Origin: an uncultured Candidatus Saccharibacteria bacterium
Lineage (GTDB): Bacteria; Patescibacteriota; Minisyncoccia; UBA6257; JACRHY01
Reading direction: 5' to 3'
Assembly (NCBI GenBank): GCA_964360035.1
Contig: CAYHUJ010000002.1
Span: 1 to 50,314, forward strand
Length of the DNA stretch: 50,314 bases
The translations under genes and the position numbers were made by a program. Shown here one piece after another: positions 1-21,501 of the stretch (positions within the stretch are counted from its first letter, which is position 1; each line of letters begins with the position of its first letter). The notes under the pieces were generated by a model. It was not told the DNA's origin, searched no databases, and saw only the letters and a list, made by a program, of their open reading frames with translations.

Positions 1-1
1 A

Positions 2-163
2 CGGCTCGAAAAAGGCATGTCGCAAGGCGACATTTGCCGTGAGTTAGGGTTAGATAGAGCGTATATTAGTAATGTTGAGAATGGCAAGCAAAATCTTACA
101 ATTAGCACAATGGAAAAGGTCGCCAAAGTGTTAGGAACGAGTATAGATCAACTTTTAAAATAA
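2..163 (+). CDS. XRE-family helix-turn-helix regulator, C-terminal part (5' end outside the window)
   Basis: The frame from nt 2 reads RLEKGMSQGDICRELGLDRAYISNVENGKQNLTISTMEKVAKVLGTSIDQLLK, then TAA at 161-163. This is the typical HTH_3/Cro-C1 pattern. It is absent from the ORF track because no start codon lies in the window. It ends 2 nt before the next ATG. Confidence 0.75.
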   Translation, partial: RLEKGMSQGDICRELGLDRAYISNVENGKQNLTISTMEKVAKVLGTSIDQLLK

Positions 164-165
164 TT

Positions 166-1008
166 ATGACTACTCAAAACCAAACTATTACTAAAATCGC
201 AATTTTTCAAAAAAAAGAAATTCGCAAGATTATTCATAAAGGTGAATGGTGGTTTTCCGTAATCGATGTCGTTGAAGCACTCTCTGGTACCGACCGCCCG
301 AGAAAATATTGGAACGATCTCAAGAAAAAGCTGATGAAAGAGGGGTTTCTTGAAGTGTCCGAAAAAATCGGACAGTTGAAAATGGCTTCTCCAGACGGGA
401 AAATGCGCGAAACGGACTGTGCTACTACCGAGACGATGTTTCGTATTATTCAAGCTATTCCATCCCCAAAAGCCGAGCCGTTTAAGCGTTGGCTCGCGCG
501 TGTCGGTTTTGAACGTGTGGAGGAAATAGAAAATCCTGAGCTTGCCACAAAGCGCACTCGAGCGATTTACAAAGCAAAAGGATATTCCGATGCGTGGATT
601 GAAAAGAGAATGCGTGGTATTGAAGTTCGAGAAACACTTACTGATGAATGGAAAAAGCGTGGAGTAAAGGAAGGTCAAGAATACGCAATTCTTACCGCCG
701 AAATCTCAAGGGCGACATTTGGTATGACCCCGAGAGAATATCAGAAATTCAAAGGATTAAAGCGTGAAAATCTACGCGACCACATGAACGATTTAGAGCT
801 TATTTTTACCATGCTCGGCGAAGCCTCAACCACTGAAATCGCGAAAAATAAAGATACACAAGGATTTATAGAAAACCAAAAAGCCGCAAAAGAAGGTGGT
901 GCAATCGCCGGGGACGCACGTAAAAAACTTGAAATAAAAAGTGGTAAAAAAGTTTCTACTGGTGAGAATTATTTACCGAGACCAAAGAAAGTAGAAAAGT
1001 TAAAATAA
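166..1008 (+). CDS. Bro-N domain / DNA-damage-inducible protein D (DinD)-like protein
   Basis: The N-terminus IAIFQKKEIRKIIHKGEWWFSVIDVVEALSG..RPRKYWNDLKKKL and the later RIIQAIPSPKAEPFKRWLARVG match the Bro-N/DinD fold pattern known from phage antirepressor-like proteins. The 280-aa ORF is intact. Confidence 0.8.
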   Translation: MTTQNQTITKIAIFQKKEIRKIIHKGEWWFSVIDVVEALSGTDRPRKYWNDLKKKLMKEGFLEVSEKIGQLKMASPDGKMRETDCATTETMFRIIQAIPSPKAEPFKRWLARVGFERVEEIENPELATKRTRAIYKAKGYSDAWIEKRMRGIEVRETLTDEWKKRGVKEGQEYAILTAEISRATFGMTPREYQKFKGLKRENLRDHMNDLELIFTMLGEASTTEIAKNKDTQGFIENQKAAKEGGAIAGDARKKLEIKSGKKVSTGENYLPRPKKVEKLK

Positions 1009-1012
1009 CTAT

Positions 1013-1796
1013 ATGACGACACAAGTAAAAGACTTTAGATCCGTAAGTTCTGAATACGACCAAGACTGGGTAAATGGCGTTGGTGAAAAAGAATATCGAG
1101 CGCTTTTCGAGTTTTTACAAGGAAAGAATATCAAAACGATTCTTGATCTTGCGGGTGGCAACGGAAAACTTGCCAAAATGCTTAGAGAGAGAGGATAATG
1201 ATGTCTTTCTATTTGATATCGCAGACAATATGCTTGCCGAAGCTCATCGTAAGGGTGTCCCAGAAGAAAAAACTATGGTGGGTGATATTTTTACTAAAAA
1301 TATTGGAAAGAAATTCGATTGTGTCATCCTCAAATCCTCAATGCACGAAATACCACTTGAAAAATCCTCAGAACTTCACTCGATTGTTTTTAATTTATTA
1401 AATCCCGAAGGATGGTTTATTGATTGGGATGTCCACATGCCAACAGAAAAAGACTCCAACTGGCTTATACGGTGGGTAAACATCAAGGACAACATTGCTG
1501 GTCTTGTGGATTTGGTAAAGAATCGCAATATTTATACGGAAGACTTTATTGTAGAGCAACTTAAACAAATAGGTTTTAAAAAAGTTACGATTGCATATCG
1601 CTTTTTTTACACTGTCTCTGTCGCAAAAATGAGTAAAGTATATTGGGCGGACAATTTTCAAAAAACTCAAGAGTTTTTTGAAAAGACGCAAGAATTATTA
1701 AAAACTTACGGGAGTGATAACATTTCCGTGACTGAAAAGCCGCCGATAGATTTTGAGATAAAAATACCTGCTGTCTTTATCGTCGGACAGAAATGA
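1013..1796 (+). pseudogene. Class I SAM-dependent methyltransferase interrupted by a +1 frameshift at an (AG)5 tract
   Basis: ORF 1013-1198 carries motif I (ILDLAGGNGKLAKML) and stops at TAA 1196-1198. The +1 frame continues directly with post-I and later motifs (DNDVFLFDIADNML, GDIF, FDCVILKSSMHEIP). The switch lies at agagagagag, 1184-1193. Confidence 0.7.
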
Positions 1797-2319
1797 GAAG
1801 TTATTGCTCTCGAATAGTTTCGTGTGATCTGTCATTTTGAATTACAGCAAGCTCAAACGAAGCCACCGAGCGAATACGAAGCAACACCGAGCAGGCATCG
1901 TGAGCGTAGCGAGCGGCCAGTGCGAGGTGCTTGCGAAGTGTGAGCGGACGTTATAGTTACCACAAAACGCGGATACGGAGTGCGCCTCGGTCGCCGTGAG
2001 GGTGGAGAAAAGAGCAACGAAAATGCTAAAATATAAATGTGCTCTTTTCGGAGACTGAAACGGCGAAGCAAAACCAAAAAATTCCTTTCCATTTCTTTTT
2101 CCGCTTTGCGGTGGGTGGTGGGGGGAGTCGCAAATAAAAATGATAGGAAATTTTGGGGTTTTGCCTCGCGCGAGCTTGTCGAGCGCGGCCGAGGCGCAAG
2201 TATCATTCGTCAAAATCCTGCGGATTTTGCCCGAAATACATTTGAACTTCGTCCAATACACACCGCAGGATTGGGCGCCCGTTCGAGAGACCGGACGCCC
2301 TAGTGTTTATAATACTTTT

Positions 2320-2673: not shown

Positions 2674-3120
2674 TCAAAGTTTGACGCGCATGGAGTCAAG
2701 AAAAGAATCATCGTAAGAAGGGACGCGGATGACGCGCTGTTGGCCGTCCGGCCCCGTTAGAAGAAATTCCACGAAGAATTTGCCGTTGTCGTCCCGGCCC
2801 GCTCCGGATTCCACCTTAATTTTCAATTCTTGAAAAAGCCGGACGATTTTCGCGGCGGAATTGATGGCTTCGTCCATTGCGTTGTCGGCCAAATTGAGAG
2901 CGGTAATCATTCTATTCAGATTGGCGTTGACCCGCCTGTCCCACTCTTTTTTGGCGTTTTCGTCCACGGCCCCCTCCTTTTTTAGGCGCGATATTTTTGT
3001 TTGTTCTGCGAGTATCTTATCAGGAATAAAGCGAATGGTAAATCCCCGCGCCCGACTGATAAAGGCAAAATCTTTGCCTCCCGTTCTTTTTTTCGGAGGA
3101 ATCTGGTAAAATAAAGTCAT
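2674..3120 (-). CDS. Hypothetical protein (148 aa from MTLFYQIPPKK)
   Basis: This is an open frame with its own terminator. I recognise no domain. I chose the internal ATG (CAT at 3118-3120) because the longer 166-aa version is antisense to the receiver remnant. Confidence 0.5.
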   Translation of the reverse strand: MTLFYQIPPKKRTGGKDFAFISRARGFTIRFIPDKILAEQTKISRLKKEGAVDENAKKEWDRRVNANLNRMITALNLADNAMDEAINSAAKIVRLFQELKIKVESGAGRDDNGKFFVEFLLTGPDGQQRVIRVPSYDDSFLDSMRVKL

Positions 3121-3316
3121 GCCCGAAGTAACGAAGAGAATTCTCATTGCCGAGGATAACAAAGCTCTTTCCAAAGCGTTGGAATTGAAACTGCCGAACT
3201 TCGGCTTTTCGGTGGCGGTCGCTTTTGACGGGGAAGAAGTTGCCGAATCGTTCGGAATTCCATACGCCGACTTGAACGCGCGGGTTTTAACCGGAACGGT
3301 GATTCGCGGCTTATGA
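3119..3316 (+). pseudogene. Truncated response-regulator receiver (REC) stub
   Basis: KRILIAEDNKALSKALELKLPNFGFSVAVAFDGEEV aligns with beta1-alpha1-beta2 of the two downstream REC domains (RVLIAEDEENLVRALQDNLEAEGYGVDVAYNGEEA). Unrelated sequence follows and the ORF stops at 65 aa, before the phospho-acceptor Asp region (LILLDLLMP in the paralogs). Its TGA overlaps the kinase ATG (ATGA at 3313-3316). Confidence 0.55.
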
Positions 3317-5202
3317 GCTTAAAACAACGGACAATTTTCTATTTTTCATTATTGCTGATTTTTTTCATCGGCGCGGCGGTTACGGTTTACTATTTTCAAT
3401 TTTCGCAAAAACTGGACGCCGTCGTGATTGACGCCGCCGGCAGAAACAGGATGCTTTCCCAAAGGATCGGTTTTCTGTCCGAGCAAGCCGTCCGTGGCGG
3501 CAGGGACGTCGGGGCGGAACTGCGGGAGGCAGTTGATCTTTATGACGCTTCATTTTACGCCATAAAAAACGGCGGCGTCGTTTTGGGAATCGCCGGCGGC
3601 GCGGTGTTGCCTCCGTCGCCGCCCGGCGTTTTGCCGTTGGTCTTATCAGCCGAAGAATTATGGCAAGCATATAAAAAACAAGCCGAAATAATCGCGCGGG
3701 AGCCGATAGCCGCGGACGGCGAGTTGAACGTTACCCTCTCCGGAGCGCTGGATTTCATTGAAGCCAACGAAGCGGAGATGCTGGCAAGAAATCACGCAGT
3801 GACGGAGGCCTACGTTGAGCTTAACAGGATTAAAAACCAAAACCTTTTCTCCGTTTTTTTGACAATCGGCGCAATAAACGCGGGAATAATCGCGTTAAGT
3901 TTTTATTTGATGAGGATATTTGTTTTGCGGCCGTTGGAACGGCTCAAGTCGGGGGTTGACAGCGTCAAAACGGGAAATTTGGATTACCGGTTGTCCGTGC
4001 CGCGCCGGGACGAAATCGGCCAGCTTTCGGCGGCTTTTAATGAAATGGTCGCGGAAATACGCGAGCGAACCGCCAAACTGAAGGAAGCCGAAGCCGAAGA
4101 CAAGGCGATGCTTTTCAGCGTTGCCGAGGGTTTGGTGGCGGTTGACAAAGAGGAAAGGGTAATGTTTGTTAATAAAGCGTTTGAAGAAATACTCGGCTGG
4201 AAAGGGGAAGAGGTGAAGGGCAAAAAGTTCACCGAATTTATTCCGCTATTAAACGAGAATGGCGAGCCGATTCCGGCATCGCAGCGGCCTATCGCCAAAG
4301 CGCTTAAAGGAATCACCACCATCACCACCGTCACCTCCGCCGCCGTTGTCGCCAATTTTTACCGGCGGAAAGACGGTTCCATGGTTCCCGTCAGCATCAA
4401 TGTCGCTCCCGTTATTTTAGACGATCAAATCGCGGGGGTCATAGAAGTTTTTCACGACATAACCAAAGAAAATGAAATTGAAAAAGCGCGGACGGATTTT
4501 TTGACACTTGCTTCGCACCAGCTTCGCACGCCCCTTTCCGGCACTAAGTGGCTTATTGAAACGATACGGCGGGGGGTTATCGGCCAGATGACGGAAAAGC
4601 AAAAATCGTATCTTGACCGAATTTATCAGATTAACGAAAGAATGATAGGACTCGTTTCCGACATGCTCAACGCTTTGCGCATTGAAAGCGGCGCCGCGGC
4701 GGCAAAAAAGGAAACCGTTTTTTTTCGGGAATTGTTTAAGGAAATTTCTTTAACGGCGGCGTCCGCGGCCGACGCGAAAAAAATTACGCTGCGCAACGCC
4801 CTTGAAAACCGCGAAGCGATTTCCGTGGAATCCGACGCCGCCATGCTGCGGAACATTCTTGAGTGTTTCGTCGGGAACGCCATCAATTATTCAAATCCCG
4901 GACGGGAGGTTGTCGTGGGCGCGAGAGAAGAGCCGGCAACCGTCGTTTTTTCGGTAAAGGACTCGGGAATCGGAATTCCCAGGGAAGAGCGAAGGAAAAT
5001 CACGGAAAGATTTTACCGGGCCTCAAACGCCAAACTTTTTAATCCCGAAGGAACCGGTCTCGGTCTTTACATCGCTTCAATGCTCGCGGAGAAAATAGGC
5101 GCCGAAATCTTCTTTGAATCCGAAGAGGGAAAGGGCTCCACATTTTTCTTGCGGGTTCCGAAAAAAGTCGCAAATAACAAAACAATTAAAAACAACCATT
5201 AA
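3313..5202 (+). CDS. Sensor histidine kinase (PilJ/NarX-type N-terminal sensor, TM, HAMP, PAS, HisKA, HATPase_c)
   Basis: An N-terminal TM helix is followed by the AAGRNRMLSQRIGFLSEQ box typical of PilJ/NarX four-helix sensors, then a second TM helix. HAMP: RPLERLKSGVDSV...IGQLSAAFNEMV. PAS: VAEGLVAVDKEERVMFVNKAFEEILGW. H-box: FLTLASHQLRTPLSG. G-boxes: DSGIGIP and GTGLGLYI. Confidence 0.9.
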   Translation: MSLKQRTIFYFSLLLIFFIGAAVTVYYFQFSQKLDAVVIDAAGRNRMLSQRIGFLSEQAVRGGRDVGAELREAVDLYDASFYAIKNGGVVLGIAGGAVLPPSPPGVLPLVLSAEELWQAYKKQAEIIAREPIAADGELNVTLSGALDFIEANEAEMLARNHAVTEAYVELNRIKNQNLFSVFLTIGAINAGIIALSFYLMRIFVLRPLERLKSGVDSVKTGNLDYRLSVPRRDEIGQLSAAFNEMVAEIRERTAKLKEAEAEDKAMLFSVAEGLVAVDKEERVMFVNKAFEEILGWKGEEVKGKKFTEFIPLLNENGEPIPASQRPIAKALKGITTITTVTSAAVVANFYRRKDGSMVPVSINVAPVILDDQIAGVIEVFHDITKENEIEKARTDFLTLASHQLRTPLSGTKWLIETIRRGVIGQMTEKQKSYLDRIYQINERMIGLVSDMLNALRIESGAAAAKKETVFFRELFKEISLTAASAADAKKITLRNALENREAISVESDAAMLRNILECFVGNAINYSNPGREVVVGAREEPATVVFSVKDSGIGIPREERRKITERFYRASNAKLFNPEGTGLGLYIASMLAEKIGAEIFFESEEGKGSTFFLRVPKKVANNKTIKNNH

Positions 5203-5214
5203 ATCAATATCAAA

Positions 5215-5592
5215 ATGAACAAGGTCTTAATCGTTGAAGATGAAGAATTTCTGGCGTCCGCCCTCAAGGACAATCTTGAGTTGGAGGGTTGCGCGATAGA
5301 CGTCGCCTATAACGGCGAGGAGGCGATGGAGCGGATTCGGAAGAGCCGTCCCAATCTCATTCTTCTTGATCTTTTGATGCCCAAAAAGGACGGCTTCTAC
5401 GTGCTTGAAGAGCTCAAGAAGAACGACGAATGGAAACTGATTCCGGTGATCGTTCTTTCCAATCTGGGCGGAGACGCGGATATAAAAAGGGCGCTGGATA
5501 TGGGAGCGAATGATTATTTCGTGAAGTCCCAGCATCCGATTGAAGAGGTAGTGGAAAAAGTAAAAACTTATCTTGGGGGCAAAAAAGCATGA
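5215..5592 (+). CDS. Stand-alone response regulator receiver (CheY-like, 125 aa)
   Basis: KVLIVEDEE...LILLDLLMPKKDGF...VIVLSNLG...DYFVKS carries the acidic pocket, the phospho-Asp, the conserved S/T and the conserved K of REC domains. There is no output domain. Confidence 0.9.
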   Translation: MNKVLIVEDEEFLASALKDNLELEGCAIDVAYNGEEAMERIRKSRPNLILLDLLMPKKDGFYVLEELKKNDEWKLIPVIVLSNLGGDADIKRALDMGANDYFVKSQHPIEEVVEKVKTYLGGKKA

Positions 5593-7901
5593 TTTACCCG
5601 TTACCCAACGTGAAAAGGCGCGTGTTAATCGCGGAAGACGAGGAAAACCTGGTCCGCGCTCTTCAGGACAATCTTGAAGCGGAGGGATACGGCGTTGATG
5701 TCGCTTACAACGGCGAAGAAGCGGTGGAGCATCTGCGCAATCAGATGCCCGACTTGATTCTTCTTGATCTTTTGATGCCCAAAAAGGACGGATTCTACGT
5801 GCTGGAGGAAGTCAAGAAAAGTTCTGAATTCAAGCGGATTCCCGTGTTGGTACTTTCCAACCTTGAAGGAGACGCCGAAATAAAACGCGCGCTGGAAATT
5901 GGAGCGGACGATTACTGCGTCAAATCTCAGCACTCAATGGAAGAAATTATTGAAAAGATAAAAAAATATCTCGGCGCGGGAGCGCGAATGGGATTAGCCG
6001 AAAGCGGCTTCGTGAAGCCGAAAAAATCGAAAGCGGAAATTTACAGGGAAAAAAGCGAGCGGGAGAAAATAATCAATGCCGCGAAAGCGGAAACCGAAGT
6101 CGCGTCGGCCGAAAAAGAGCGGGCGACGTCGGCTCTTGCCGAGGAGCGGCAGAAAGCCGAAGAAGCGATAACGCTGGAAAAAAGCCGCGCGGAAAAAATC
6201 ATCGCCGAAGAAAGAAAACGGGCGGAAGAGGCGCTGGCCGAAGAACGCCGAAAAGTCAAAGAGGCCGGGGAAAATCTGGAGCTTGAAAAGAAACGGAAAG
6301 AAGCCGCCGAGTTTAAAGAGCTGGTTTTGGAGGAAACGCTTGAGGAAGAAAAAAGAAAAGCGGGGGCGATTGTTTCCGAAGAAAGAAAACGGGCGGACTG
6401 GCTTATCGCGGAAGAGCGCGGGAAGGCCGAAACGCTTCTCGCCGAAAGGGAGCGTCTTGAAAGAGCGCTGGCGGAAGAACGGAGGAAGGAAGAGGCCGTT
6501 TTGGATGAGCTCCGAAAGACCGGAGTTGAACGAGCCGCCGCCGAAGCGGAGCGGGTTGCCGCGGAAAAAAGAGCGGAGGCGGCGCTGGCGGGAAAAAAAT
6601 CAGCGGAAGCGAGGGGAAAAATTTTGGAAGCGGGAAAACGACAAGCGGAAGAGGCGCTGGCTGAAGAAAAAAGAAAGGAAGAGCTACTGCTTGCCGAAGA
6701 GCGGAAAAAGACCGGGGCGATTTTGGCTGAAAAAAACCGGACAGAAGCGGCTCTCGCCGGAGAGCGGGAAAAAGAGCGGGTTATTTTAGCCGAGGTTGAA
6801 AAGACCAATGTTGAACAAGCCACCGCAAAAAGAGAAGCGGAAGCCGTCTTGGCGGAAAAAGAACGGATGGCAAAAGAAGAAAAACAGCTGGAATCTGAAA
6901 TAAAAATCGCCCGAAAACGGGCGGAGCGGGCGCGGCTGGCTCTCGCCGAAGAAAGAGCGAAAGAGAAATTGGCGTCCAAGGCGGCGACGTCGGCTCTTGC
7001 CGAGGAGCGGCAGAAAGCCGAAGAAGCGATAACGCTGGAAAAAAGCCGCGCGGAAAAAATCATCGCCGAAGAAAGAAAACGGGCGGAAGAGGCGCTGATA
7101 ATGGAGGAGAAAAGGAGGGGAGTTGAATCGGTATTGCTTGAGACCTCCTTGTCCGCGAAAAAAAGGAAGGAGGCGGAAGAAATAAAAAAGACGCGGGAAG
7201 CGTTTCAAAAAGAAAGCGGAAAACTCAAAAAGGCCCTGGCCGCCGAGAAAAAGCGGCTGGCGGAAGAAAAGAAAAAGGAAAGAGCCGCCGTCCTCGCCGA
7301 AAGAAAGAAGGCGCGGTGGGCGCTTATTGCCGAAAGGAAGCGGCTGGCCGAAGAAAAAAAGAAGGGGAAAGCGGCTGTTATTCGGGAAAGAAAACGGGAA
7401 GGGGAACGAAAAAGGAAAGAAGAAAAAGAGAAAATTATCGCCGAGAGGAAGAAGGCCGGATCTGTTCTCGCGAAAAGAGGCGAAAAATTCAGAGAAATTT
7501 TGGCCGTGAAAAAACAGGAGAAAAAACAGGCAGTCCGGGCCGAAAGGGAGAGAATAAAATCAGCCCTATTGGAAAAAAGAAAAAAAATTATTCGAGCCGT
7601 CGTCTTCGCGCAAAAAATGAAAGAAGAGCGGAAAATTCTCGTCGGGAAGGAAAGGGCGCGGGCGGTTCTCCTCGCCGAGAAAAAGCGGCTGGCGGAAGAA
7701 AAGAAAAAGGAAAGAGCCGCCGTCCTCGCCGAAAGAAAGAAGGCGCGGTGGGCGCTTATTGCCGAAAAAAGAAAAGAACGGGCGGTTCTGGCCGCGGAGA
7801 AAAGAAAAGGGGCCGCGACTCTCGCGATGGCGAGAAGAAAAGCCGAAAAAGCGAAAATGGCCCTCGCGAAAATCGAAAAACAAGTTAAAAAAGCCCTTTA
7901 A
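5589..7901 (+). CDS. Response regulator: N-terminal REC fused to ~640 aa of periodic E/R/K/A-rich helical repeat
   Basis: The first ~130 aa are a close paralog of the preceding REC, including a 35-nt identical DNA run (5359-5393 = 5757-5791). The rest is a single open frame of motifs such as ALAEERQKAEEAI, IIAEERKRAEEAL and LLAEERKKTGAIL. The start overlaps the upstream stop (ATGA at 5589-5592). Confidence 0.85.
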   Translation: MIYPLPNVKRRVLIAEDEENLVRALQDNLEAEGYGVDVAYNGEEAVEHLRNQMPDLILLDLLMPKKDGFYVLEEVKKSSEFKRIPVLVLSNLEGDAEIKRALEIGADDYCVKSQHSMEEIIEKIKKYLGAGARMGLAESGFVKPKKSKAEIYREKSEREKIINAAKAETEVASAEKERATSALAEERQKAEEAITLEKSRAEKIIAEERKRAEEALAEERRKVKEAGENLELEKKRKEAAEFKELVLEETLEEEKRKAGAIVSEERKRADWLIAEERGKAETLLAERERLERALAEERRKEEAVLDELRKTGVERAAAEAERVAAEKRAEAALAGKKSAEARGKILEAGKRQAEEALAEEKRKEELLLAEERKKTGAILAEKNRTEAALAGEREKERVILAEVEKTNVEQATAKREAEAVLAEKERMAKEEKQLESEIKIARKRAERARLALAEERAKEKLASKAATSALAEERQKAEEAITLEKSRAEKIIAEERKRAEEALIMEEKRRGVESVLLETSLSAKKRKEAEEIKKTREAFQKESGKLKKALAAEKKRLAEEKKKERAAVLAERKKARWALIAERKRLAEEKKKGKAAVIRERKREGERKRKEEKEKIIAERKKAGSVLAKRGEKFREILAVKKQEKKQAVRAERERIKSALLEKRKKIIRAVVFAQKMKEERKILVGKERARAVLLAEKKRLAEEKKKERAAVLAERKKARWALIAEKRKERAVLAAEKRKGAATLAMARRKAEKAKMALAKIEKQVKKAL
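6122..6236 (+). repeat. 115-bp perfect intragenic direct repeat, copy 1 (partner 6983-7097)
   Basis: Compared base by base, ggcgacgtcggctcttgccgaggagcggcag...gggcggaagaggcgctg is identical at an offset of 861 bp (in frame). It encodes ATSALAEERQKAEEAITLEKSRAEKIIAEERKRAEEAL. Confidence 0.9.
6983..7097 (+). repeat. 115-bp perfect intragenic direct repeat, copy 2 (partner 6122-6236)
   Basis: See the partner entry. Identity ends at 6237/7098 (g versus a). Confidence 0.9.
7241..7335 (+). repeat. 95-bp perfect intragenic direct repeat, copy 1 (partner 7673-7767)
   Basis: cgccgagaaaaagcggctggcggaagaaaagaaaaagg...gcgcttattgccgaaa is identical at an offset of 432 bp (in frame). It encodes AEKKRLAEEKKKERAAVLAERKKARWALIAE. 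Confidence 0.9.
7673..7767 (+). repeat. 95-bp perfect intragenic direct repeat, copy 2 (partner 7241-7335)
   Basis: See the partner entry. The flanking bases differ (c7240 versus t7672, g7336 versus a7768). Confidence 0.9.
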
Positions 7902-7922
7902 CCGATTCAGCCGAAAAGTTAA

Positions 7923-10904
7923 ATGAAATTTACGGCGAATTTGATAAAAAAAACGGGGTTTGTTCTTATTATGGCCATTGTCGTCGGCCTGCTGTTTTCC
8001 GGCGGCCCGTTTTTTTTCCGTATTCCGGCGGCCCGCGCGGCGGTTGCTTTCGTCGGTTGTGGCGCGGCCAGCGCGGTTGGAAGCGGTAATATGACATCAG
8101 TGGGAATCCCTTCCGGAATTCAGAATAACGACATTCTTATCACTTATGTTCATACCAGGGACAACGTGGATTCTTCCATGCCGGCCGACTGGACCAATAA
8201 CGTTGCCGGCAACGGCAATACGACCAATCGGCTGGAAATTTTCTGGAAAAGAACTGCCGGCTCCGAGTCCGCCCCGACCGTTACCCATTCCGGCGGCGAT
8301 TCATCCATTGCAACGATGTGCGCCTTTCGGGAGGTTGACACGGCGGGCAGCCCCTTTAACGCCGTCGGTTCCGTGCAGAGCAATGCCGGCTCTCCCATAA
8401 GCACCGCCGCGATTTCCACGACGGTAAACAACGCGATGATAATTCACGTTTTTGGTTCCAATGACAACAACGCCTGGGGAAGCTACACGGGCATTCCGAC
8501 AAACGAAGCGGCGCAAAACGATAATGCCAGCGGATCGGACGACAGCTCGGGGATGACTTACGGCGCGCAGTCAACGGCGGGTTCCACGGGAACGGCGGGG
8601 GCGTCCCAAACACTTCGCGGTCCCGACGCCGGCGTTTCCGTATTAATGGCATTAAGGCCGTTTGTCGCGGTTACGACTTTAGGCGACGGCAGCGACCCCT
8701 CCAACGCCGCCGTTGCTCCGGGGGCGGCCGCGACCGATTTGGATGCGTTCACTCTACAAACAAACACGGGCGCCGATACGGTTACTGCGGCAACAGTCAC
8801 CTTATCGGCGGGTTCCTCCGGCGGGCTTTCTCTGGTCGCTATCACCAACGACGCCGGCTCCGTCACTTATTGCTCGCAGGCGGATCCGCCTTCCGATTCC
8901 GTTTCCCTTTCTTCCTGCGGAATCCCCGTAACCACCTCTTTAACTCAATTTAAAATCAGAATTACTCCCAAAATTCACGCCGATATGCCGGTTCCCCCGG
9001 GTTCTGATTATTCCGTTACCGGAACAATTACTTCATTTACCAGCACCAATTCCCAGTCGGGCGCTGATGCGGACAGCGCCACGGTAACGATTGACAACGC
9101 CTCGCCGGCAAACGTTACCGGAGCGAGCGGAACCGCCGGCGATTCCCAGGTTTCTTTAAGCTGGACCAATCCCGCGGACTCGGATTTTCACAGCGCGGTT
9201 GTTTTAAGAAGGGCCGGAGCGGCGACAAGCGACGCGCCCGCGGAAGGAGCCGTTTACGTCGTCGGTAACGCGGTCGGCTCGTCGATTGTCGCTTGCGTCG
9301 TCGCGTCGCCGTCAAGCGGCTGCGCCGACACCGGCCTTACCAACGGCACCGAGTATCATTATCGGATTTTTGCGAGGGATAACAACGTTAATTATTCCGA
9401 TACCGGCGCAGTACCGACAGGTTCGCCATTTACGCCCGTCGCAACTCCCGACACCACCCCGCCCGCGGCGGTTACCGACCTTGCGCTTTCAGACGCCTCT
9501 GATTCCGCGATAACGGTTTCCTGGACCGCGCCCGGCGATGACGGCAACACGGGAACGGCGACAAGTTATGATTTGCGGTATTCAACCTCTCTCATCACGG
9601 CCGGAAATTTTGATTCCGCGACGCAGGTAACGGGCGAACCGGCTCCGCAACCCGCGGGCACTTCCCAGTCAAAAGTTGTCTCGGGGCTTTCTCCGAGCAC
9701 GCTGTATTATTTCGCGCTGAAGACCTCCGATGAAGTGCCGAATGTTTCGGCGATGTCAAACGTGCCGAGCGGCACGACTTCCGTTACTCCCGACACCACC
9801 CCGCCCGCGGCGGTTACCGATTTGGCCACCGGAACGGTGACTTCCTCGTCCATAGCCATTTCCTGGACCGCGCCCGGCGATGACGGCAACACGGGAACGG
9901 CGACAAGTTATGATTTGCGGTATTCAACCTCTCTCATCACGGCCGGAAATTTTGATTCCGCGACGCAGGTAACGGGCGAACCGGCTCCGCAACCCGCGGG
10001 CACTTCCCAGTCAAAAGTTGTCTCGGGGCTTTCTCCGAGCACGCTGTATTATTTCGCGCTGAAGACCTCCGATGAAGTGCCGAATGTTTCGGCGATGTCA
10101 AACGTGCCGAGTTTGGCCACCGCGGCCGAAGGAGGCGGAGTGCCGCAGCCGTCCGCCGGCGGCGGAGGGCCGGGGGTCGCGCCGCGCCGCGCCGTTTTTT
10201 CCGGTCAAGCGTATCCTCAAAGCAAAATAGAAATCTTGCGGAAAAGCATGACGGACGAGATTTACGCGCAGGTGCCGTCGGAACATTCCCAAATAAATCC
10301 AGACGGAACGTTTCTGATTTCATTTACCGGCCTTATCGGCGCCGATTATCTCTTTGCTCTTCGCGCGTATGACAAAGATAACCGCAATACCGGCGTATTA
10401 ACGTTTAACGTGTCGCTTTTCGGCGACTTATTTGAAGCGAAAGACATCCTCGTTTCGCCTACGGTCGGTTTGAGCAAATCTTTAATTTCCAAAAACGACG
10501 TTGTTAAATTAAGGGGTTACGCCGGTCCCGGTTTCGTGGTAAAATTAGAAGTAGACGGATTAAAGCGCGAAGACGTCAAGGCGGATTCGTCCGGATTGTG
10601 GAGTTTTGATCTGGGCGTCACTTATCTGACTTACGGCGATCATCGCGTCAGGGCGCGGCAGGTTTCGCCCGACGGGAAAACGGCGAGTAATTTTTCACTT
10701 TCGCGCATTTTCAGAATTTCGCAGATGCCTTCGCTCAAGGCGGATATCAACAACGACGGCATGGTGACAATCGGTGATTGGAGCATTTTTCTTTTCCGAT
10801 GGGGAAGCAAAAACGAGGAATTACGAATGAAAAACGATCTTAATAACGACGGAAAAGTAAATGTATTTGATTTGAGTATTTTTCTTCAAGCAATGAGAAA
10901 ATAA
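7923..10904 (+). CDS. Large secreted/surface protein: N-terminal TM/signal, unknown ~230-aa domain, FN3-like repeats, Ig-like domains, C-terminal dockerin
   Basis: The hydrophobic N-terminus is GFVLIMAIVVGLLFSGGPFFF. Two near-identical FN3-like units follow (ISWTAPGDDGNTGTATSYDLRYS...LSPSTLYYFALKTSDE). The C-terminal pair of Ca-binding dockerin segments is DINNDGMVTIGDWSIF and DLNNDGKVNVFDLSIF, at about 10739-10901. Confidence 0.85.
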   Translation: MKFTANLIKKTGFVLIMAIVVGLLFSGGPFFFRIPAARAAVAFVGCGAASAVGSGNMTSVGIPSGIQNNDILITYVHTRDNVDSSMPADWTNNVAGNGNTTNRLEIFWKRTAGSESAPTVTHSGGDSSIATMCAFREVDTAGSPFNAVGSVQSNAGSPISTAAISTTVNNAMIIHVFGSNDNNAWGSYTGIPTNEAAQNDNASGSDDSSGMTYGAQSTAGSTGTAGASQTLRGPDAGVSVLMALRPFVAVTTLGDGSDPSNAAVAPGAAATDLDAFTLQTNTGADTVTAATVTLSAGSSGGLSLVAITNDAGSVTYCSQADPPSDSVSLSSCGIPVTTSLTQFKIRITPKIHADMPVPPGSDYSVTGTITSFTSTNSQSGADADSATVTIDNASPANVTGASGTAGDSQVSLSWTNPADSDFHSAVVLRRAGAATSDAPAEGAVYVVGNAVGSSIVACVVASPSSGCADTGLTNGTEYHYRIFARDNNVNYSDTGAVPTGSPFTPVATPDTTPPAAVTDLALSDASDSAITVSWTAPGDDGNTGTATSYDLRYSTSLITAGNFDSATQVTGEPAPQPAGTSQSKVVSGLSPSTLYYFALKTSDEVPNVSAMSNVPSGTTSVTPDTTPPAAVTDLATGTVTSSSIAISWTAPGDDGNTGTATSYDLRYSTSLITAGNFDSATQVTGEPAPQPAGTSQSKVVSGLSPSTLYYFALKTSDEVPNVSAMSNVPSLATAAEGGGVPQPSAGGGGPGVAPRRAVFSGQAYPQSKIEILRKSMTDEIYAQVPSEHSQINPDGTFLISFTGLIGADYLFALRAYDKDNRNTGVLTFNVSLFGDLFEAKDILVSPTVGLSKSLISKNDVVKLRGYAGPGFVVKLEVDGLKREDVKADSSGLWSFDLGVTYLTYGDHRVRARQVSPDGKTASNFSLSRIFRISQMPSLKADINNDGMVTIGDWSIFLFRWGSKNEELRMKNDLNNDGKVNVFDLSIFLQAMRK
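9444..10111 (+). repeat. Tandem duplication, period 342 bp (114 codons), inside the dockerin protein gene
   Basis: 9444-9478 matches 9786-9820. 9519-9769 matches 9861-10111, apparently base for base. The ~40 nt between these blocks has diverged. Confidence 0.9.
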
Positions 10905-10917
10905 CCGTCTTAAACTT

Positions 10918-12666
10918 ATGCGCAAGCATTATTTTGTAATAATTTTCACACTCTCGCTTTTTCTGGCGCTGACTCGGGGGGCGTTGGCGGCGAGCATTTA
11001 CCTATTGCCCGAGCAGCGCGCCATTAATCGCGGAGAGATTTTTGTCGTAGACGTTAAAATAGATTCCGAAGGGGAAGATATCAATGCCGCCGAAGCGAGG
11101 ATAAGCTGGCCGGCGGGCGTTTTAGAATTTGTTGAAGCGAGCAAAAACGGTTCGGTGTTCAATTTTTGGGTGGAAGAGCCGCAATTTTCCGCCTCGTCCA
11201 ATTCCGTGAGGTTTATTAGCGGAACCACCAACGGCGTTTCGGGCGGGGCGCTGCAGGTTTTAAAAATTAAATTTAAAGGGGCGGGTAGCGGCATCGCGGA
11301 CGTTTCAATTGCCGATGCCGCCGTAATCGCGGCGGACGGCAAGGGAACAAACGTGTTATCTCGAGTCGGGAGCGCGAGCTACCGCGTCGGCATAGAGGCC
11401 GCACAGCCGGAAGCCGCCGTTCCGTCCCGGGAAGCGCCGCAGCCGGTGCCCATTGACAGGAAAGTTGTTCCCGCCGCAAAACTGCCGCAGAAACCGAATG
11501 TTTCCGTACCTCTTTATCCTGACCAAGAGAAATGGCACAACTATTTTGGCGAAGCGGTTGTCTTATGGGATGTGCCCGAAGACGTCGTAAAAATCGCCGT
11601 TTCGGCAGACCAAAGCCCCAAAGCGGAGCCGATGAGCGTTGAAGAAAAACTTTTTACCGGTAAAAAGCTTGGAGTTTTGGAAGAGGGGATATGGTATGTC
11701 CACGCGCAATTCAAGAACAACATCGGTTGGGGTCCCGTGGCGCATTACCGCATCGCGATTGATGCCGCGCCGCCGCTTGAATTTGAGATAACCGCGAGCG
11801 AAGGGGAGGTGACGGACAACCCCGCTCCGGTTCTCCAGTTTAAAACTTCCGACGCCCTTTCTGGTCTTGTGTGGTATCGGGTAAAAATAGACGGCGACGA
11901 GCCGATAAAAATAGACGCGAAAGATTTCAACGGCAGTTTCACTTTGCCGCTGCAGCCGCCGGGCGCGCGCCGGGTGGTCGTAAAGGCGTGGGATTTGGCG
12001 GGAAACAGCGTTACCGACGACATTAATTTGGAAATTCTTCCCATTCCGTCGCCTAATATCACTTTTGTCACCGCGGAACTTTTTTCCGACGAGGAAAGGG
12101 GTTTGACGGTGAAAGGAACGGCGCTGCCCGGCCTTGATGTTTTGTTGCGAGTTTGGCAACTTTTGGACGCGGAAAGGGGCGAAATGGTTGTTGAGAGCAT
12201 CGCTTTGGCGGACGAGAAGGGCGTATGGGAAACGACATTTGACAAGCTATTGCGGAACGGCCGGTATGTTGTCGCGGCCCAAAGCCGGGACGTCCGCGGC
12301 GCGTTGAGTTTGGGGGTGGATTCGCCGGAGGTGCTGGTAAAATCAAAGCCAATTATTCAAATCGGTTTCATCCAGCTTGGCAAAGGCGGCGCGGCGCTGC
12401 TTCTGCTCGTGATTTTGGTGGCGGGATTCGGCGGCGGCGTGTGGTTTTACAGGAAACGGCAGGAAAAATTGGCGTTGCGGGTTTCTTTCGCGGCGTCGGA
12501 AATCGCGAAAATATTCCAGCTTTTAAAATCGGACCTTGATCGGCTTCGCTTGTCGCTGCGGACGCCCGCGACGGAAGACGATGAATACGCCCTTAAAAAA
12601 ATGGAGGAGAACCTTCAGAAAATGGAAATGTATCTCAAAAAGGGAGTTGAGAAGATAAAGAAATAG
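10918..12666 (+). CDS. Cohesin-domain protein with Ig-like modules, C-terminal TM anchor and short cytoplasmic coiled-coil tail
   Basis: A signal-like N-terminus is followed by IYLLPEQRAINRGEIFVVDVKIDSEGEDINAAEARISWPAGVLEFVE...GALQVLKIKFKGAGSGIADVSI. This is the cohesin-type beta-sandwich pattern (best-scoring strand motifs: F.V.V......INA.......D...L). The TM helix GGAALLLLVILVAGFGGGVWFY lies near 12381-12452 and is followed by RKRQEK. Confidence 0.8.
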   Translation: MRKHYFVIIFTLSLFLALTRGALAASIYLLPEQRAINRGEIFVVDVKIDSEGEDINAAEARISWPAGVLEFVEASKNGSVFNFWVEEPQFSASSNSVRFISGTTNGVSGGALQVLKIKFKGAGSGIADVSIADAAVIAADGKGTNVLSRVGSASYRVGIEAAQPEAAVPSREAPQPVPIDRKVVPAAKLPQKPNVSVPLYPDQEKWHNYFGEAVVLWDVPEDVVKIAVSADQSPKAEPMSVEEKLFTGKKLGVLEEGIWYVHAQFKNNIGWGPVAHYRIAIDAAPPLEFEITASEGEVTDNPAPVLQFKTSDALSGLVWYRVKIDGDEPIKIDAKDFNGSFTLPLQPPGARRVVVKAWDLAGNSVTDDINLEILPIPSPNITFVTAELFSDEERGLTVKGTALPGLDVLLRVWQLLDAERGEMVVESIALADEKGVWETTFDKLLRNGRYVVAAQSRDVRGALSLGVDSPEVLVKSKPIIQIGFIQLGKGGAALLLLVILVAGFGGGVWFYRKRQEKLALRVSFAASEIAKIFQLLKSDLDRLRLSLRTPATEDDEYALKKMEENLQKMEMYLKKGVEKIKK

Positions 12667-18912: not shown

Positions 18913-21501
18913 ATGACGCCGGAAGAATATCAACCTACGCCGGAAGAAATAAAAGCGGCCGAGGCGATGCTCTCAAAGAAGCAGCGCATCGCTTCCGCCC
19001 AAAGAAAGTTAAAATATCAGTACGGAGGAGCGGATAAAAGCAATGATCCGGGAATTGAATCCAATAAAACCGGTACGCCAAAAATTTCCGGCACTATAGG
19101 AGAGCAATTATCGCAACAAGGAATCAATCCCGGGCAGATAAGCGCCGAATCAATAGAGGCAGCGCGAGATCGGGAGTGGCAAAGGCGAGCAGAGTGGGAA
19201 AAAACGCTCAATGAACTCGGAGCGGCTGTAGAAAAAGGCGTTGAACGACACGACGAATGGGCGAAATCAATTTCTTCTCCCGGTGTCGTTGTAAAAATCG
19301 GCAAAGAAAACGCGGAAAGCGACCCGGATCGGCTGAAAATGATCAGGGCGGAAAAAAAGAGAATGGCGGAAATTCACAAGCAAGAAACGGGGCGTTTTCC
19401 GGCTCAACAAGAAATAGAAAGGCGATTGCTGAATGCCATGGAACAGCTTGAGATGAGCAAGGGGATGAAAGGCGAGAAAAGCGCCGAGCGGACGGCTCAT
19501 TATCAAAAAGAGGTCGCGTCTTTAATGATAAAACTTAAAGAAACGGATGAGGCGCGAGAAAGACGCCGGCGGTTTCAGGAAGAAAAAGCAAAAGGAAAAA
19601 AATCAGCGGAAACACAAAAAGGTCAAGCATCATCATTAAATAATGATAACATGTCAAAAGAAGACATATACAAACAAAACGAAGCGGAGCGGATAGCGCG
19701 AGAACAGAGAGAGAGTGAAAGATTTGATAAATTCGCGGAGGCGCGTCCCGAATTCGTCAAGGAGATTGAAATTTTGCGAAAACTCGGCTATGCGCGTATC
19801 AGCGAAAAAGAGGGATCGGAAGAGGCCATGACCAAAAATCTTGAGAATGTTCGCAAGCGGAAAACCGAAGAATTGGTTTCTAAAGAAAGGGAATTGACCA
19901 AAAAATATTTGGCCGAAGAAAGAGCGAAGCTAGACCCCGTTTCCCGATTGGACCTTTTCATCAAAGAAAATCCGAAATACGCCGGGTTGATCGCTAAAAT
20001 GAGAGAAGGGATGGGAAAAAGAAAAGAAATACTCGGTATTCTCCCAAACGGCGAAGAGGCATTTTCAAAATGGCTTGAGGACATTGAAAAAATGAAGCAA
20101 TCTGCGGATCAAGGGCGGGATATTGCCGAAAAAACGGCGGAAGCGGGAACTAAGCGCGCGGAATCAACCGGCGGGACGCCCGAAGAAATCGGCCAAACGC
20201 AAAAGACCGGCGGGCGATACGTTGAAGGCGTTAAAATGGCGGGAGAAGAAGCCGAAAAAGCGACGGTCGGTTTGAATTCTGGTCTTGAAACTCAAAGCAG
20301 GGAAGGTCCTCCGCCCCCTCCTCCCGGGCGCCGCTCGGAAAGAGGAGCGGAAGAGCCGCCTTTGGATTGCTATGATTTCGGCAGTTGTTGCGAGAAGGCC
20401 TCCGATGCCGTCAAGAGATTTGCGAAGAAACTTTACGAAGGAGTCAGGATGAAAACGGTTAACCGCGCGAAAATATGGTTCAATGAAAAAATATACAATT
20501 GGCACGATAAAAAATCCCGCAAATACGTCGGCCAGGTTTCCGCTTTTGACAGGCAAATTACCGGTTTGGAAAATCAGATAAAAGAGCACGAGGAAGGCCT
20601 TTCCAGACGCTTTGCCAACGCTTCCGCCGCTTCGCGCGAACGGATCTTTTCCTCTATTCAAAAAATGCGCCGGGATGTTGAAAAACTGACGGCCGATAAA
20701 GAAAAAGCGCAGTCACGGCTGAATAACAGAGACAATGAAAAAAGACGGTACGAGAACAAACAAAAAGATAACGCCGCCGAAGCGCTCGGCCGCATCGCCG
20801 ACGGGCTTCGTCCTTACGAGTTGAAAATAGCCGCCCGAAAAAAATGCAAAGAGCAATATGACGTGGAGATAAGTTCCCATGCCGCCAGAAAGAAAGAATT
20901 TCAGGCGGAATTGGAGGCCTTGCGGCGGGAAATGGCTGGCGCTCCCAAAGAAGTAAAGAAGGCCATCAAAGAAGAAATCGCTCTTATTCAAGCCGAAATA
21001 AAACGGGCCGAGAAGAACATCAAGAACCGCGTCAAAGCACGGCAGGAAATTGAAAAACAACTGACTAAATTGGAAAGGGGAGCTTCGTATTGGCGGGATG
21101 CGCGCAATGAATTTTCCAGAATCGCCAATAGAGAGAGGGCTTATTACGCCAAAAAAGCGAAAAAGCCGATTGTGGAGGCGGACTTGGCAAGAAAAGAAAT
21201 CTCCGCCGGCGGTGGAGAAGAAGCGGCGCCTGCGGAACGGAAAGAAATCAAAAAAATTCGGCCGTTGAGCGAACGCATTAACGAGTGGAACGACCACTTC
21301 AGAACCGCTTTTCCTCTTAGTGCGGTTGATCTGCGAAGAGCCGGCGTTATTACCGGAGAAAGAGATCTTTTGACCGAGGATTTCGTTTCCATCTTGAACG
21401 ATTATTACGTTTTTTTATCGGGAGAAGGAGAGGGAATTCCCTCCGAACGCGAGCTTGACGACATGATTGCCGCCTTGAGAGGGTGGGAAATGGGACGTTA
21501 A
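18913..21501 (+). CDS. Hypothetical 862-aa highly charged (E/K/R-rich) protein, largely predicted helical, with an internal poly-Pro stretch
   Basis: This is a long uninterrupted ORF. I see no TM segment, signal peptide or recognisable catalytic motif. Notable features are GPPPPPPG followed by LDCYDFGSCCEK. Confidence 0.7.
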   Translation: MTPEEYQPTPEEIKAAEAMLSKKQRIASAQRKLKYQYGGADKSNDPGIESNKTGTPKISGTIGEQLSQQGINPGQISAESIEAARDREWQRRAEWEKTLNELGAAVEKGVERHDEWAKSISSPGVVVKIGKENAESDPDRLKMIRAEKKRMAEIHKQETGRFPAQQEIERRLLNAMEQLEMSKGMKGEKSAERTAHYQKEVASLMIKLKETDEARERRRRFQEEKAKGKKSAETQKGQASSLNNDNMSKEDIYKQNEAERIAREQRESERFDKFAEARPEFVKEIEILRKLGYARISEKEGSEEAMTKNLENVRKRKTEELVSKERELTKKYLAEERAKLDPVSRLDLFIKENPKYAGLIAKMREGMGKRKEILGILPNGEEAFSKWLEDIEKMKQSADQGRDIAEKTAEAGTKRAESTGGTPEEIGQTQKTGGRYVEGVKMAGEEAEKATVGLNSGLETQSREGPPPPPPGRRSERGAEEPPLDCYDFGSCCEKASDAVKRFAKKLYEGVRMKTVNRAKIWFNEKIYNWHDKKSRKYVGQVSAFDRQITGLENQIKEHEEGLSRRFANASAASRERIFSSIQKMRRDVEKLTADKEKAQSRLNNRDNEKRRYENKQKDNAAEALGRIADGLRPYELKIAARKKCKEQYDVEISSHAARKKEFQAELEALRREMAGAPKEVKKAIKEEIALIQAEIKRAEKNIKNRVKARQEIEKQLTKLERGASYWRDARNEFSRIANRERAYYAKKAKKPIVEADLARKEISAGGGEEAAPAERKEIKKIRPLSERINEWNDHFRTAFPLSAVDLRRAGVITGERDLLTEDFVSILNDYYVFLSGEGEGIPSERELDDMIAALRGWEMGR

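Follow-up and report, generated by a model that had tools for sequence, protein, structure and literature searches.

A response regulator with a long, charged and predicted helical tail in a groundwater member of the Patescibacteria, tentatively read as having a structural output

The DNA analyzed here (the window) comprises positions 1 to 50,314 of contig CAYHUJ010000002.1. The gene under study, at 5589-7901, encodes a 770-aa response regulator in which an N-terminal receiver (REC) domain is followed by a tail of 636 aa (residues 135-770). The open reading frame (ORF) runs from ATG to TGA on the forward strand, exactly where a reading made earlier from the sequence alone (the sequence-only reading) had placed it. 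It is preceded on the same strand by the genes for a sensor histidine kinase and for a second, single-domain receiver. The coordinates of these genes, of the parts of the tailed protein and of two downstream genes are collected in Table 1.

Table 1. Features of the two-component locus and of the genes downstream, in window coordinates.
Feature	Position	Strand	Basis and remarks
Sensor histidine kinase, 629 aa (PilJ-type sensor, HAMP, PAS, HisKA, HATPase_c)	3313..5202	+	Pfam, above gathering scores
Single-domain receiver, 125 aa, tandem paralogue	5215..5592	+	Pfam Response_reg, E 4.9e-25
Response regulator with charged, predicted helical tail, 770 aa	5589..7901	+	ATG-to-TGA ORF; Pfam REC; DNA copies in other assemblies
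Canonical receiver domain, residues 12-124, phospho-acceptor D60	5622..5960	+	Pfam; CheY alignment
Flexible linker, residues 129-147 (GAGARMGLAESGFVKPKKS), with the sole Pro of the tail	5973..6029	+	AlphaFold2 predicted local distance difference test (pLDDT) <50 at 129-144; no secondary structure
Proximal helical region, residues 148-540, charge-balanced, most repeat units	6030..7208	+	Charge profile, unit list, predicted helices
115-nt in-frame duplication, 100% identical, copy 1	6122..6236	+	Repeat family D5
115-nt duplication, copy 2	6983..7097	+	Repeat family D5; copies 861 nt (287 codons) apart
Distal helical region, residues 541-770, strongly basic	7209..7898	+	Charge profile; predicted helix 521-769
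95-nt in-frame duplication, 100% identical, copy 1	7241..7335	+	Repeat family D8; protein offset 144
95-nt duplication, copy 2	7673..7767	+	Repeat family D8; copies 432 nt (144 codons) apart
C-terminal Lys-flanked amphipathic helix, residues 753-770 (EKAKMALAKIEKQVKKAL)	7845..7898	+	Hydrophobic moment
Secreted protein, 993 aa, fn3 and dockerin-type domains (context only)	7923..10904	+	Pfam fn3, E 7.7e-18; Dockerin_1, E 5.5e-05
Protein of 582 aa, hydrophobic stretches N-terminal and near the C-terminus (context only)	10918..12666	+	ORF translation; weak Big_13 Pfam match

The ORF is a genuine, intact gene. No internal stop was found in the 636 codons of the tail, compared with 13 and 14 in the other two forward frames and 26.6 ± 4.9 predicted from composition for a frame of that length. 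T is scarce in the purine-rich DNA of the tail, so long ORFs are cheap there. The same gene layout was recovered in five further assemblies (L001, L002, L023, L024 and L025), and the identical 770-aa protein was present on four contigs. The 2313-nt gene was identical in L001 and L002, which are assemblies of two replicate 0.1 µm filter samples from Hainich well H52; these represent the same strain as the window and therefore establish that the assembly is reproducible, not that the gene is evolutionarily conserved.

Shorter calls in the other three assemblies were each accounted for. The 197-aa call in the NCBI metagenome-assembled genome (MAG) GCA_038062555.1 (L024) stops at a 100-N scaffold gap within the first copy of the 115-nt repeat, and outside the gap its DNA differs from the window by 2 substitutions. 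The 89-aa call on ERZ1286166 contig_4444 (L025) coincides with 22 indels of 1-3 nt over 5501-8000, mostly of a single A. Homopolymer-type single-base indels occur in every gene of this contig, the kinase region is likewise called as short fragments, and the error profile is inferred to be long-read-like. As L025 is collinear across the whole gene, with no indel >3 nt in that interval, it independently confirms the repeat count. The 191-aa call on ERZ2470813 NODE_3905 (L023, 5.8x coverage) comes from a strain that has diverged from the window by 16 substitutions and by four small deletions (-2, -1, -4 and -1 nt at window 6032-6193), which may be real changes or low-coverage errors. In this assembly they divide the gene into a 191-aa REC ORF and a 524-aa tail ORF (L023 3073-5377). 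Substitutions in REC were all synonymous (6/6), and those in the linker and tail were 6 non-synonymous and 3 synonymous. L023 is a mosaic relative to the window: its kinase gene carries 9.5 differences per kb, and the adjacent REC gene, the 582-aa gene and dnaG are identical. The objection of an assembly artefact or frameshift, which the sequence-only reading had set against itself, therefore fails, given the exact copies in L001 and L002 and the collinear ones in L023, L024 and L025.

The receiver domain is canonical, as had been claimed from sequence. Response_reg (PF00072) matched it with E 1.3e-22, scoring 80.5 bits where the cutoff is 30.2, and E16/D17, D60, S90, Y109 and K112 align with CheY D12/D13, D57, T87, Y106 and K109, so that the catalytic and switch residues are all present. 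The kinase gene ends 12 nt before the single-domain receiver gene and 387 nt before the tailed gene, and its product is presumed to be the phosphodonor for both receivers. The stop codon of the single-domain receiver gene overlaps the start codon of the tailed gene (ATGA), and the two proteins are 70% identical over 120 aa, without gaps, at residues 11-130 of the tailed protein. Two receivers of other organisms (P0153 and P0176) align with both; identity to the tailed protein across the receiver is 62-70% among these CheY/DivK-like single-domain proteins, the adjacent paralogue included. Motifs shared with the untailed paralogue by P0153 and P0176 (EEFL/EDFL, and GGDA in P0153) suggest that of the two genes the tailed one is derived. 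The single-domain receivers end after alpha-5 or carry an unrelated extension of up to ~40 residues, whereas the tailed protein, which lies in the same operon as its paralogue and presumably answers to the same kinase, continues for 636 residues. Upstream, a 65-aa ORF at 3119-3316 (+) encodes an N-terminal receiver fragment (ILIAEDN..., aligned with about 45 residues from the start of REC); it shares an ATGA overlap with the start codon of the kinase gene and resembles the remnant of a third receiver gene.

The tail is dominated by charged residues and alanine (E 21%, A 19%, K 17%, R 12%, L 9%). Units of the form [LI]AEE[RK][KR]KAE[EA][AI] were counted with a position matrix seeded on four units and compared with shuffled tails; 22 were found, against 7.3 (maximum 13) after shuffling. 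Six neighboring unit pairs were exactly 11 residues apart (0.0 in shuffles, maximum 2). The BLOSUM autocorrelation of the tail was highest at lag 11 (z 8.7), the power of hydrophobicity at a period of 10.5-11 reached z 11-13, DNA repeat families recurred every 33 nt, and a layout of the protein at 11 residues per row displayed the register. A recurring motif of 12-13 residues had been proposed from the sequence. The recurrence exceeds chance, but the period is 11 residues (33 nt), so that the 13-residue motif consists of one unit and the beginning of the next. Nor is the array a perfect tandem one: it is degenerate with phase slips, and Tandem Repeats Finder (TRF) detected no long tandem array.

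Longer duplications are superimposed on this unit. The 115-nt duplication corresponds at the protein level to a match of residues 172-224 with 459-511 (offset 287), and protein diagonals within the tail were observed at offsets 287, 144, 115, 63 and 29. Every duplication detected in the tail was in frame. The tail arose through nested in-frame duplication of the 11-residue unit. Its charge is distributed in two parts. In residues 135-540 the 101 acidic and 100 basic side chains nearly cancel (net charge -1), and residues 541-770 hold 86 K/R and 35 E/D (net charge +51). The helical hydrophobic moment reached its maximum for the tail at residues 753-770 (0.51; tail mean 0.22 ± 0.11).

A single-sequence AlphaFold2 run predicted the tail to be almost entirely helical, in line with what its composition had suggested. 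Three helices were predicted (148-334, 336-513 and 521-769) with pLDDT mostly 70-85, and low-confidence zones fell at 248-263, 333-340, 374-386 and 506-521. In the third helix block-mean pLDDT was mostly 70-84, with a drop to 51-57 near 621-640. The description of the tail as one uninterrupted stretch is therefore not strictly correct: it contains 19 Gly and 1 Pro, is split in the model into three helices with low-confidence zones, and is not uniform in net charge. A length of 90-100 nm, calculated earlier for a single helix, stands as an upper bound, since it would be reached only if the three predicted helices (~28, 27 and 37 nm) lay in one unbent line.

Whether such a tail forms a single alpha-helix (SAH) or a coiled coil, both of which the sequence-only reading had offered, was assessed from hydrophobic and charge periodicities against shuffled tails. 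Hydrophobic power at 3.5, 3.6, 3.67 and 7 residues was not above shuffles (z -1.1 to 1.2). For heptads, power at 3.5 or 7 gave z of about -1.1; for hendecads, power at 3.667 gave z 0.0 to 1.2 and the moment at 98.2 degrees z -0.5 to -3.6, and only about one Leu/Ile doublet was seen per 11 residues, where a hendecad core would take positions a, d, e and h. At 98.2, 100 and 102.9 degrees the local hydrophobic moment of the helix lay below shuffles (z -0.5 to -3.7), and the large hydrophobics were aligned no better than chance (z -0.6 to 1.6). Tropomyosin, of similar composition (47% charged, 21% large hydrophobics, 13% Ala), gave z +4.4 to +7.8 in the same moment tests and +2.3 to +4.6 for large hydrophobics alone. 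Like charges in the tail were depleted at i+3 (z -5.6) and i+4 (z -5.7); the corresponding values were about -8 for a designed AEEEKRK SAH and about -0.9 for tropomyosin. Opposite charges were enriched from E to K/R at i+3 (z 5.8) and from K/R to E at i+4 (z 3.0), with no enrichment from E to K/R at i+4 (z -1.3). The signs of this charge pattern are those of the designed SAH, whereas tropomyosin differs. As the tail consists of copies of one unit, these z-scores overstate the number of independent observations. On these sequence statistics, an ER/K-like, charge-stabilized SAH is favored over a coiled coil, although the composition is not that of a textbook SAH.

Searches for relatives of the tail were negative throughout. 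It matched nothing in Pfam (nothing past residue 124), NCBIfam, PHROGs, PADLOC or PDB sequences (E <= 1), and the full protein's NCBIfam matches, every one scoring far under its cutoff, were confined to the receiver halves of regulators of the OmpR/PhoB type and others; the earlier statement that no known output domain is visible was thus confirmed by profile searches of Pfam and NCBIfam. A Foldseek comparison of the AlphaFold2 model with the PDB, proposed as a check of that statement, returned nothing below E = 1. A full-length search of 5.8 billion proteins gave REC matches only, with <=27% query coverage, and the tail alone gave no match at E <= 1e-3. The 770-aa sequence is missing from the clustered protein collection, hence the lack of a self-match. 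Multi-REC hybrid kinases dominated an exhaustive HMMER search with the full-length query, and the 15 top matches that were read were all hybrid kinases, multi-REC proteins or short single-REC proteins (15/15). tblastn of the tail found no match in any fetched locus of another organism or in the rest of the window. On these searches the tail has no detectable homologue, and the tailed gene is known from one population only.

Two kinds of candidate were rejected. A metagenome scan returned REC matches and, besides these, contig JAAUXV010188858.1 (L022), which is eukaryote-like and was set aside as convergent low complexity; its 1084-aa protein (L022 459-3713) carries long stretches of RIAEEKRKAEE, repeating with period 6/12, between regions rich in Ser, His and Pro, an independent recurrence of the short charged motif in an unrelated protein. 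Three proteins of 1189-1344 aa (P0031, P0042 and P0045) are not homologues, as their domain order differs and the match is confined to REC. They consist of N-terminal membrane segments, 300-500 aa of E/R/A-rich repeats (AEERERxQRELEER...) and, C-terminal of these, a receiver-like but degenerate region along with two receivers that are canonical; a Cys-rich motif (CxxC with CC and CxxC pairs) stands before each. They represent a separate case, unrelated to the present one, in which receivers are paired with a long charged helix.

The host is a Wolfebacteria-like member of the Patescibacteria living in groundwater. The best named matches of its alanyl-tRNA synthetase (AlaRS) were from Patescibacteria group bacteria and Candidatus Wolfebacteria (62-71% identity), and the contigs carrying the gene originate from 0.1 µm groundwater filters; both bear out the ultra-small cell assumed by the sequence-only reading. 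The dnaG-rpoD-alaS order was kept in the four relatives fetched, and in none of them was the block of kinase, REC and tailed REC found upstream of dnaG. Relatives with AlaRS of 71%, 69% and 68% identity carry unrelated genes there. The closest (L026, AlaRS 89% identity) carries a different REC followed by PilB/PilC-type genes; its contig ends ~340 nt before that REC, so that genes beyond are not visible. In L026 281-6638 this REC gene is followed by genes of PilB-like (MshEN+T2SSE) and PilC-like (T2SSF) type, one with LVIVD repeats and several small ones. On these comparisons, the site upstream of dnaG is a swap-in/swap-out region for REC-linked surface machinery. A genome scan with the kinase as query found relatives at <=33% identity only, and the best of them (L003) has a kinase and a single-domain REC without a tailed REC.

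At the other end of the block, window 1-2300 (ORFs 166-1008 and 1074-1796, both +) encodes a Bro-N protein that matches phrog_15286 (E 2e-95) and a methyltransferase-like neighbor. GC content is 0.40-0.41 here and ~0.50 elsewhere, and a helix-turn-helix (HTH) gene just upstream of the Bro-N region is visible in L001. The Bro-N/HTH flank and the differing content in relatives place the two-component block in a variable, possibly mobile region, and the block may have a phage-like or mobile flank.

Downstream, the gene of the 993-aa secreted protein starts 21 nt past the stop codon of the tailed gene and is co-directional with it; no convincing terminator was found between them, the promoter/terminator scan being at background level. 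The gene of the 582-aa protein follows after 13 nt and leads into the dnaG-rpoD-alaS block. The putative signal peptide and membrane anchor of its product were judged by eye from the sequence. Differences between assemblies are concentrated in the fn3/dockerin gene: window 9000-10999 holds 116/116 of the differences between the window and L001 and 114/117 of those between the window and L002 (~39 per kb, with essentially none elsewhere). The gene carries two near-identical fn3 copies, and either a hypervariable surface protein or copy-assembly ambiguity could explain the differences.

The rest of the window contains housekeeping genes, among them ribosomal proteins, RpoA, two MreB, PBP2 and aminoacyl-tRNA synthetases. 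The MreB paralogues are both full length (30405-31424 and 36486-37532, +; Pfam E 5e-127 and 2e-131) and lie 5 kb apart, and a PBP2-type transpeptidase gene follows the second. A second highly charged protein, of 862 aa and non-repetitive, is encoded at 18913-21501 (+) in purine-rich DNA (AT skew 0.27-0.40) and had no Pfam or PHROG match; in L026 an 802-aa gene stands in the same position after alaS.

Among described systems, the nearest in architecture are FrzS and AglZ of Myxococcus xanthus, in which a receiver fold is joined to a long coiled coil (258 residues in FrzS) (PMC1974792). The likeness lies in an N-terminal CheY-like fold followed by several hundred helical residues that are neither enzymatic nor HTH, and the output of both proteins is structural or localization-related and not catalytic (PMC1974792, PMC9811614). 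FrzS and AglZ have pseudo-receivers without a phosphorylation site and heptad coiled coils predicted to dimerize (PMC1974792), whereas the present receiver has all catalytic residues and adjoins a kinase, and the present tail lacks heptad or hendecad amphipathicity. The resemblance is architectural only: there was no sequence similarity among the matches, and the proteins were set apart by their published descriptions and not by direct alignment. The architecture, called unusual for a receiver protein in the sequence-only reading, is not without precedent in view of these receiver-fold proteins with long helical regions; it is set apart from them by the canonical receiver and the non-heptad tail.

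RomR offers a second comparison. Its output is Pro-rich and Glu-rich, and is not known to form a long helix or to have an 11-residue repeat or a basic segment like those of the present tail. What it shares with the present protein is a receiver joined to a compositionally biased, non-enzymatic C-terminal region that acts via protein localization (PMC2034494).

ER/K SAHs (myosin VI/X/7a, INCENP, CAF-1 KER) share with the tail an E/K/R-rich composition, the i+3/i+4 charge order, a predicted continuous helix and the lack of a hydrophobic seam. The tail differs in being 50% charged, with 19% Ala and 20% large hydrophobics, in its regular period of 11, in its bacterial host and in its length of ~620 residues; 90 residues is the greatest length cited for a structurally described SAH (PMC10335832). 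The KER of CAF-1 is a net-positive K/E/R SAH that binds DNA non-specifically, whereas the charge-balanced SAH of myosin 7a does not (PMC10335832), and this net-positive SAH parallels the distal third of the tail with its charge of +51. A limited literature search found no response regulator with an SAH output, nor this architecture in Patescibacteria.

On balance the protein is read, tentatively and at somewhat less than even probability, as a response regulator that is specific to its lineage and whose output is structural and not enzymatic. A flexible linker of ~20 residues is predicted to join the receiver to ~620 residues of almost wholly alpha-helical tail, which is most likely a long tether or spacer and not an enzyme or a classical DNA-binding domain. 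In the mechanism proposed, the kinase would phosphorylate both paralogous receivers, and the tailed one would be the physical output, a semi-rigid tether or spacer of up to ~90 nm. The neutral proximal part would serve as the semi-rigid spacer, and the basic distal part with its terminal amphipathic helix would adhere non-specifically to a polyanionic surface, be it DNA or the membrane's anionic inner face. Phosphorylation would alter the partner or dimer state at the receiver end, and with it what is held, the distance or the avidity. The untailed paralogue would compete for the same phosphoryl groups.

Several points weigh against this reading. The AlphaFold2 model was made without an alignment and has a predicted template modeling score (pTM) of 0.20. 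Textbook SAHs have a higher charge fraction and a lower hydrophobic fraction than this tail, of which only 50% is E+K+R, with ~20% L/I/V/M/F/W and 19% Ala. The charge pattern could reflect amplification of the unit and not selection, and the sparse Leu/Ile doublets every 11 residues could support weak pairing. Either DNA or the membrane could be the target of the basic end. We infer the helical state, the oligomeric state and the binding of the tail from sequence, prediction and analogy, and there is no orthologue by which conservation could be judged. The fusion of REC and tail may be dispensable, given the split in L023. A further and serious point is the alternative that follows.

The tail may be a low-complexity appendage, young and evolving fast, whose specific function is slight or absent, its receiver acting as a phosphate sink or modulator in competition with the paralogue; it would have originated by read-through and by expansion of a purine-rich 33-nt unit through replication slippage. 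This is somewhat unlikely but is a serious rival. No search found a homologue of the tail, relatives with AlaRS 68-89% identical lack the gene at the syntenic site, two duplications are still 100% identical, and the gene lies in a variable region with a phage-like Bro-N gene on its flank. In L023, moreover, 6/9 changes in the tail are non-synonymous, against 0/6 in REC, and small deletions split the gene. Yet the 524-aa tail ORF remains open in that split variant, as do the 636 codons in the window where other frames gather 13-14 stops; the detected duplications are all in frame, the bipartite charge pattern and the amphipathic helix at the C-terminus look organized and not random, and by general reasoning 636 extra residues are costly for an organism with a small genome.

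An unlikely alternative is a scaffold of the FrzS/AglZ kind, in which the tail dimerizes along its length in a coiled coil of two (or more) strands and the protein is a platform for localization or assembly, controlled by phosphorylation, for example for envelope, pilus or cytoskeletal proteins. The architecture resembles those proteins (PMC1974792) and the composition is near that of tropomyosin (~50% charged, 20% large hydrophobics, many Ala). Leu/Ile at every 11th residue would stay roughly on one side of the helix. The kinase sensor domain is PilJ-type, and the close relative has its REC beside type IV pilus genes at the same locus. The hydrophobic periodicities of 3.5, 3.67 and 7 residues are nevertheless absent from the tail, its hydrophobic moment is below random where that of tropomyosin is far above (z +4.4 to +7.8), the receiver is canonical and not a pseudo-receiver, and no coiled-coil family or PDB chain was matched by sequence.

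A period of 11 residues is also typical of the lipid-binding helices of apolipoproteins, alpha-synuclein and perilipin and of group 3 late embryogenesis abundant (LEA) proteins, and the tail might accordingly be an amphipathic helix that coats lipid surfaces, as its basic distal third and amphipathic C-terminus could also suggest. This is very unlikely: the tail shares the period without a continuous apolar face, its moment at 98-100 degrees falls below shuffles (z down to -3.7) except in the last 18 residues, so that no lipid-facing side is left, and Pfam similarity to those families is absent. Lastly, the long ORF might be put down to misassembly or frameshifting in repetitive, purine-rich DNA, given the exact 115-nt and 95-nt repeats, the scaffold gap inside the 115-nt repeat of one MAG and the calls of 191, 197 and 89 aa. 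This is largely refuted and highly improbable, since those calls go back to a 5.8x divergent strain, an N gap and a homopolymer-indel contig, the 2313-nt gene is found unchanged in assemblies of two replicate samples and on four contigs, and the long-read-like contig is collinear over 5501-8000 with indels <=3 nt.

A more specific form of the structural reading would make the tail a true SAH several times longer than any characterized, and the protein a phosphorylation-controlled ruler or tether whose receiver end docks the kinase or a partner while the +51 end holds DNA or membrane. It is regarded as quite unlikely. If true, the output of the signal would be an altered distance or bridging and not catalysis or sequence-specific DNA binding, this would be the first response regulator known with an SAH as its output, and three segments of ~28, 27 and 37 nm would lie inside a cell only a few hundred nanometers across.

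Response regulators are classified by their output domains. To our knowledge, structural outputs that are neither enzymatic nor HTH are rare and known mainly from the pseudo-receivers of Myxococcus. A response regulator with a structural helical output is already known; what differs here is the canonical receiver and the charged, non-heptad tail. As the gene is confined to one groundwater population, with no orthologues and with relaxed constraint on the tail, its general biological importance may be small. It illustrates a rapid origin, by duplication of a receiver and then in-frame expansion of a 33-nt unit. The tail would serve as a natural test case for very long SAHs in bacteria, and the class of structural outputs would be broadened by a canonical receiver that is linked to a kinase and drives ~620 residues of charged helix.

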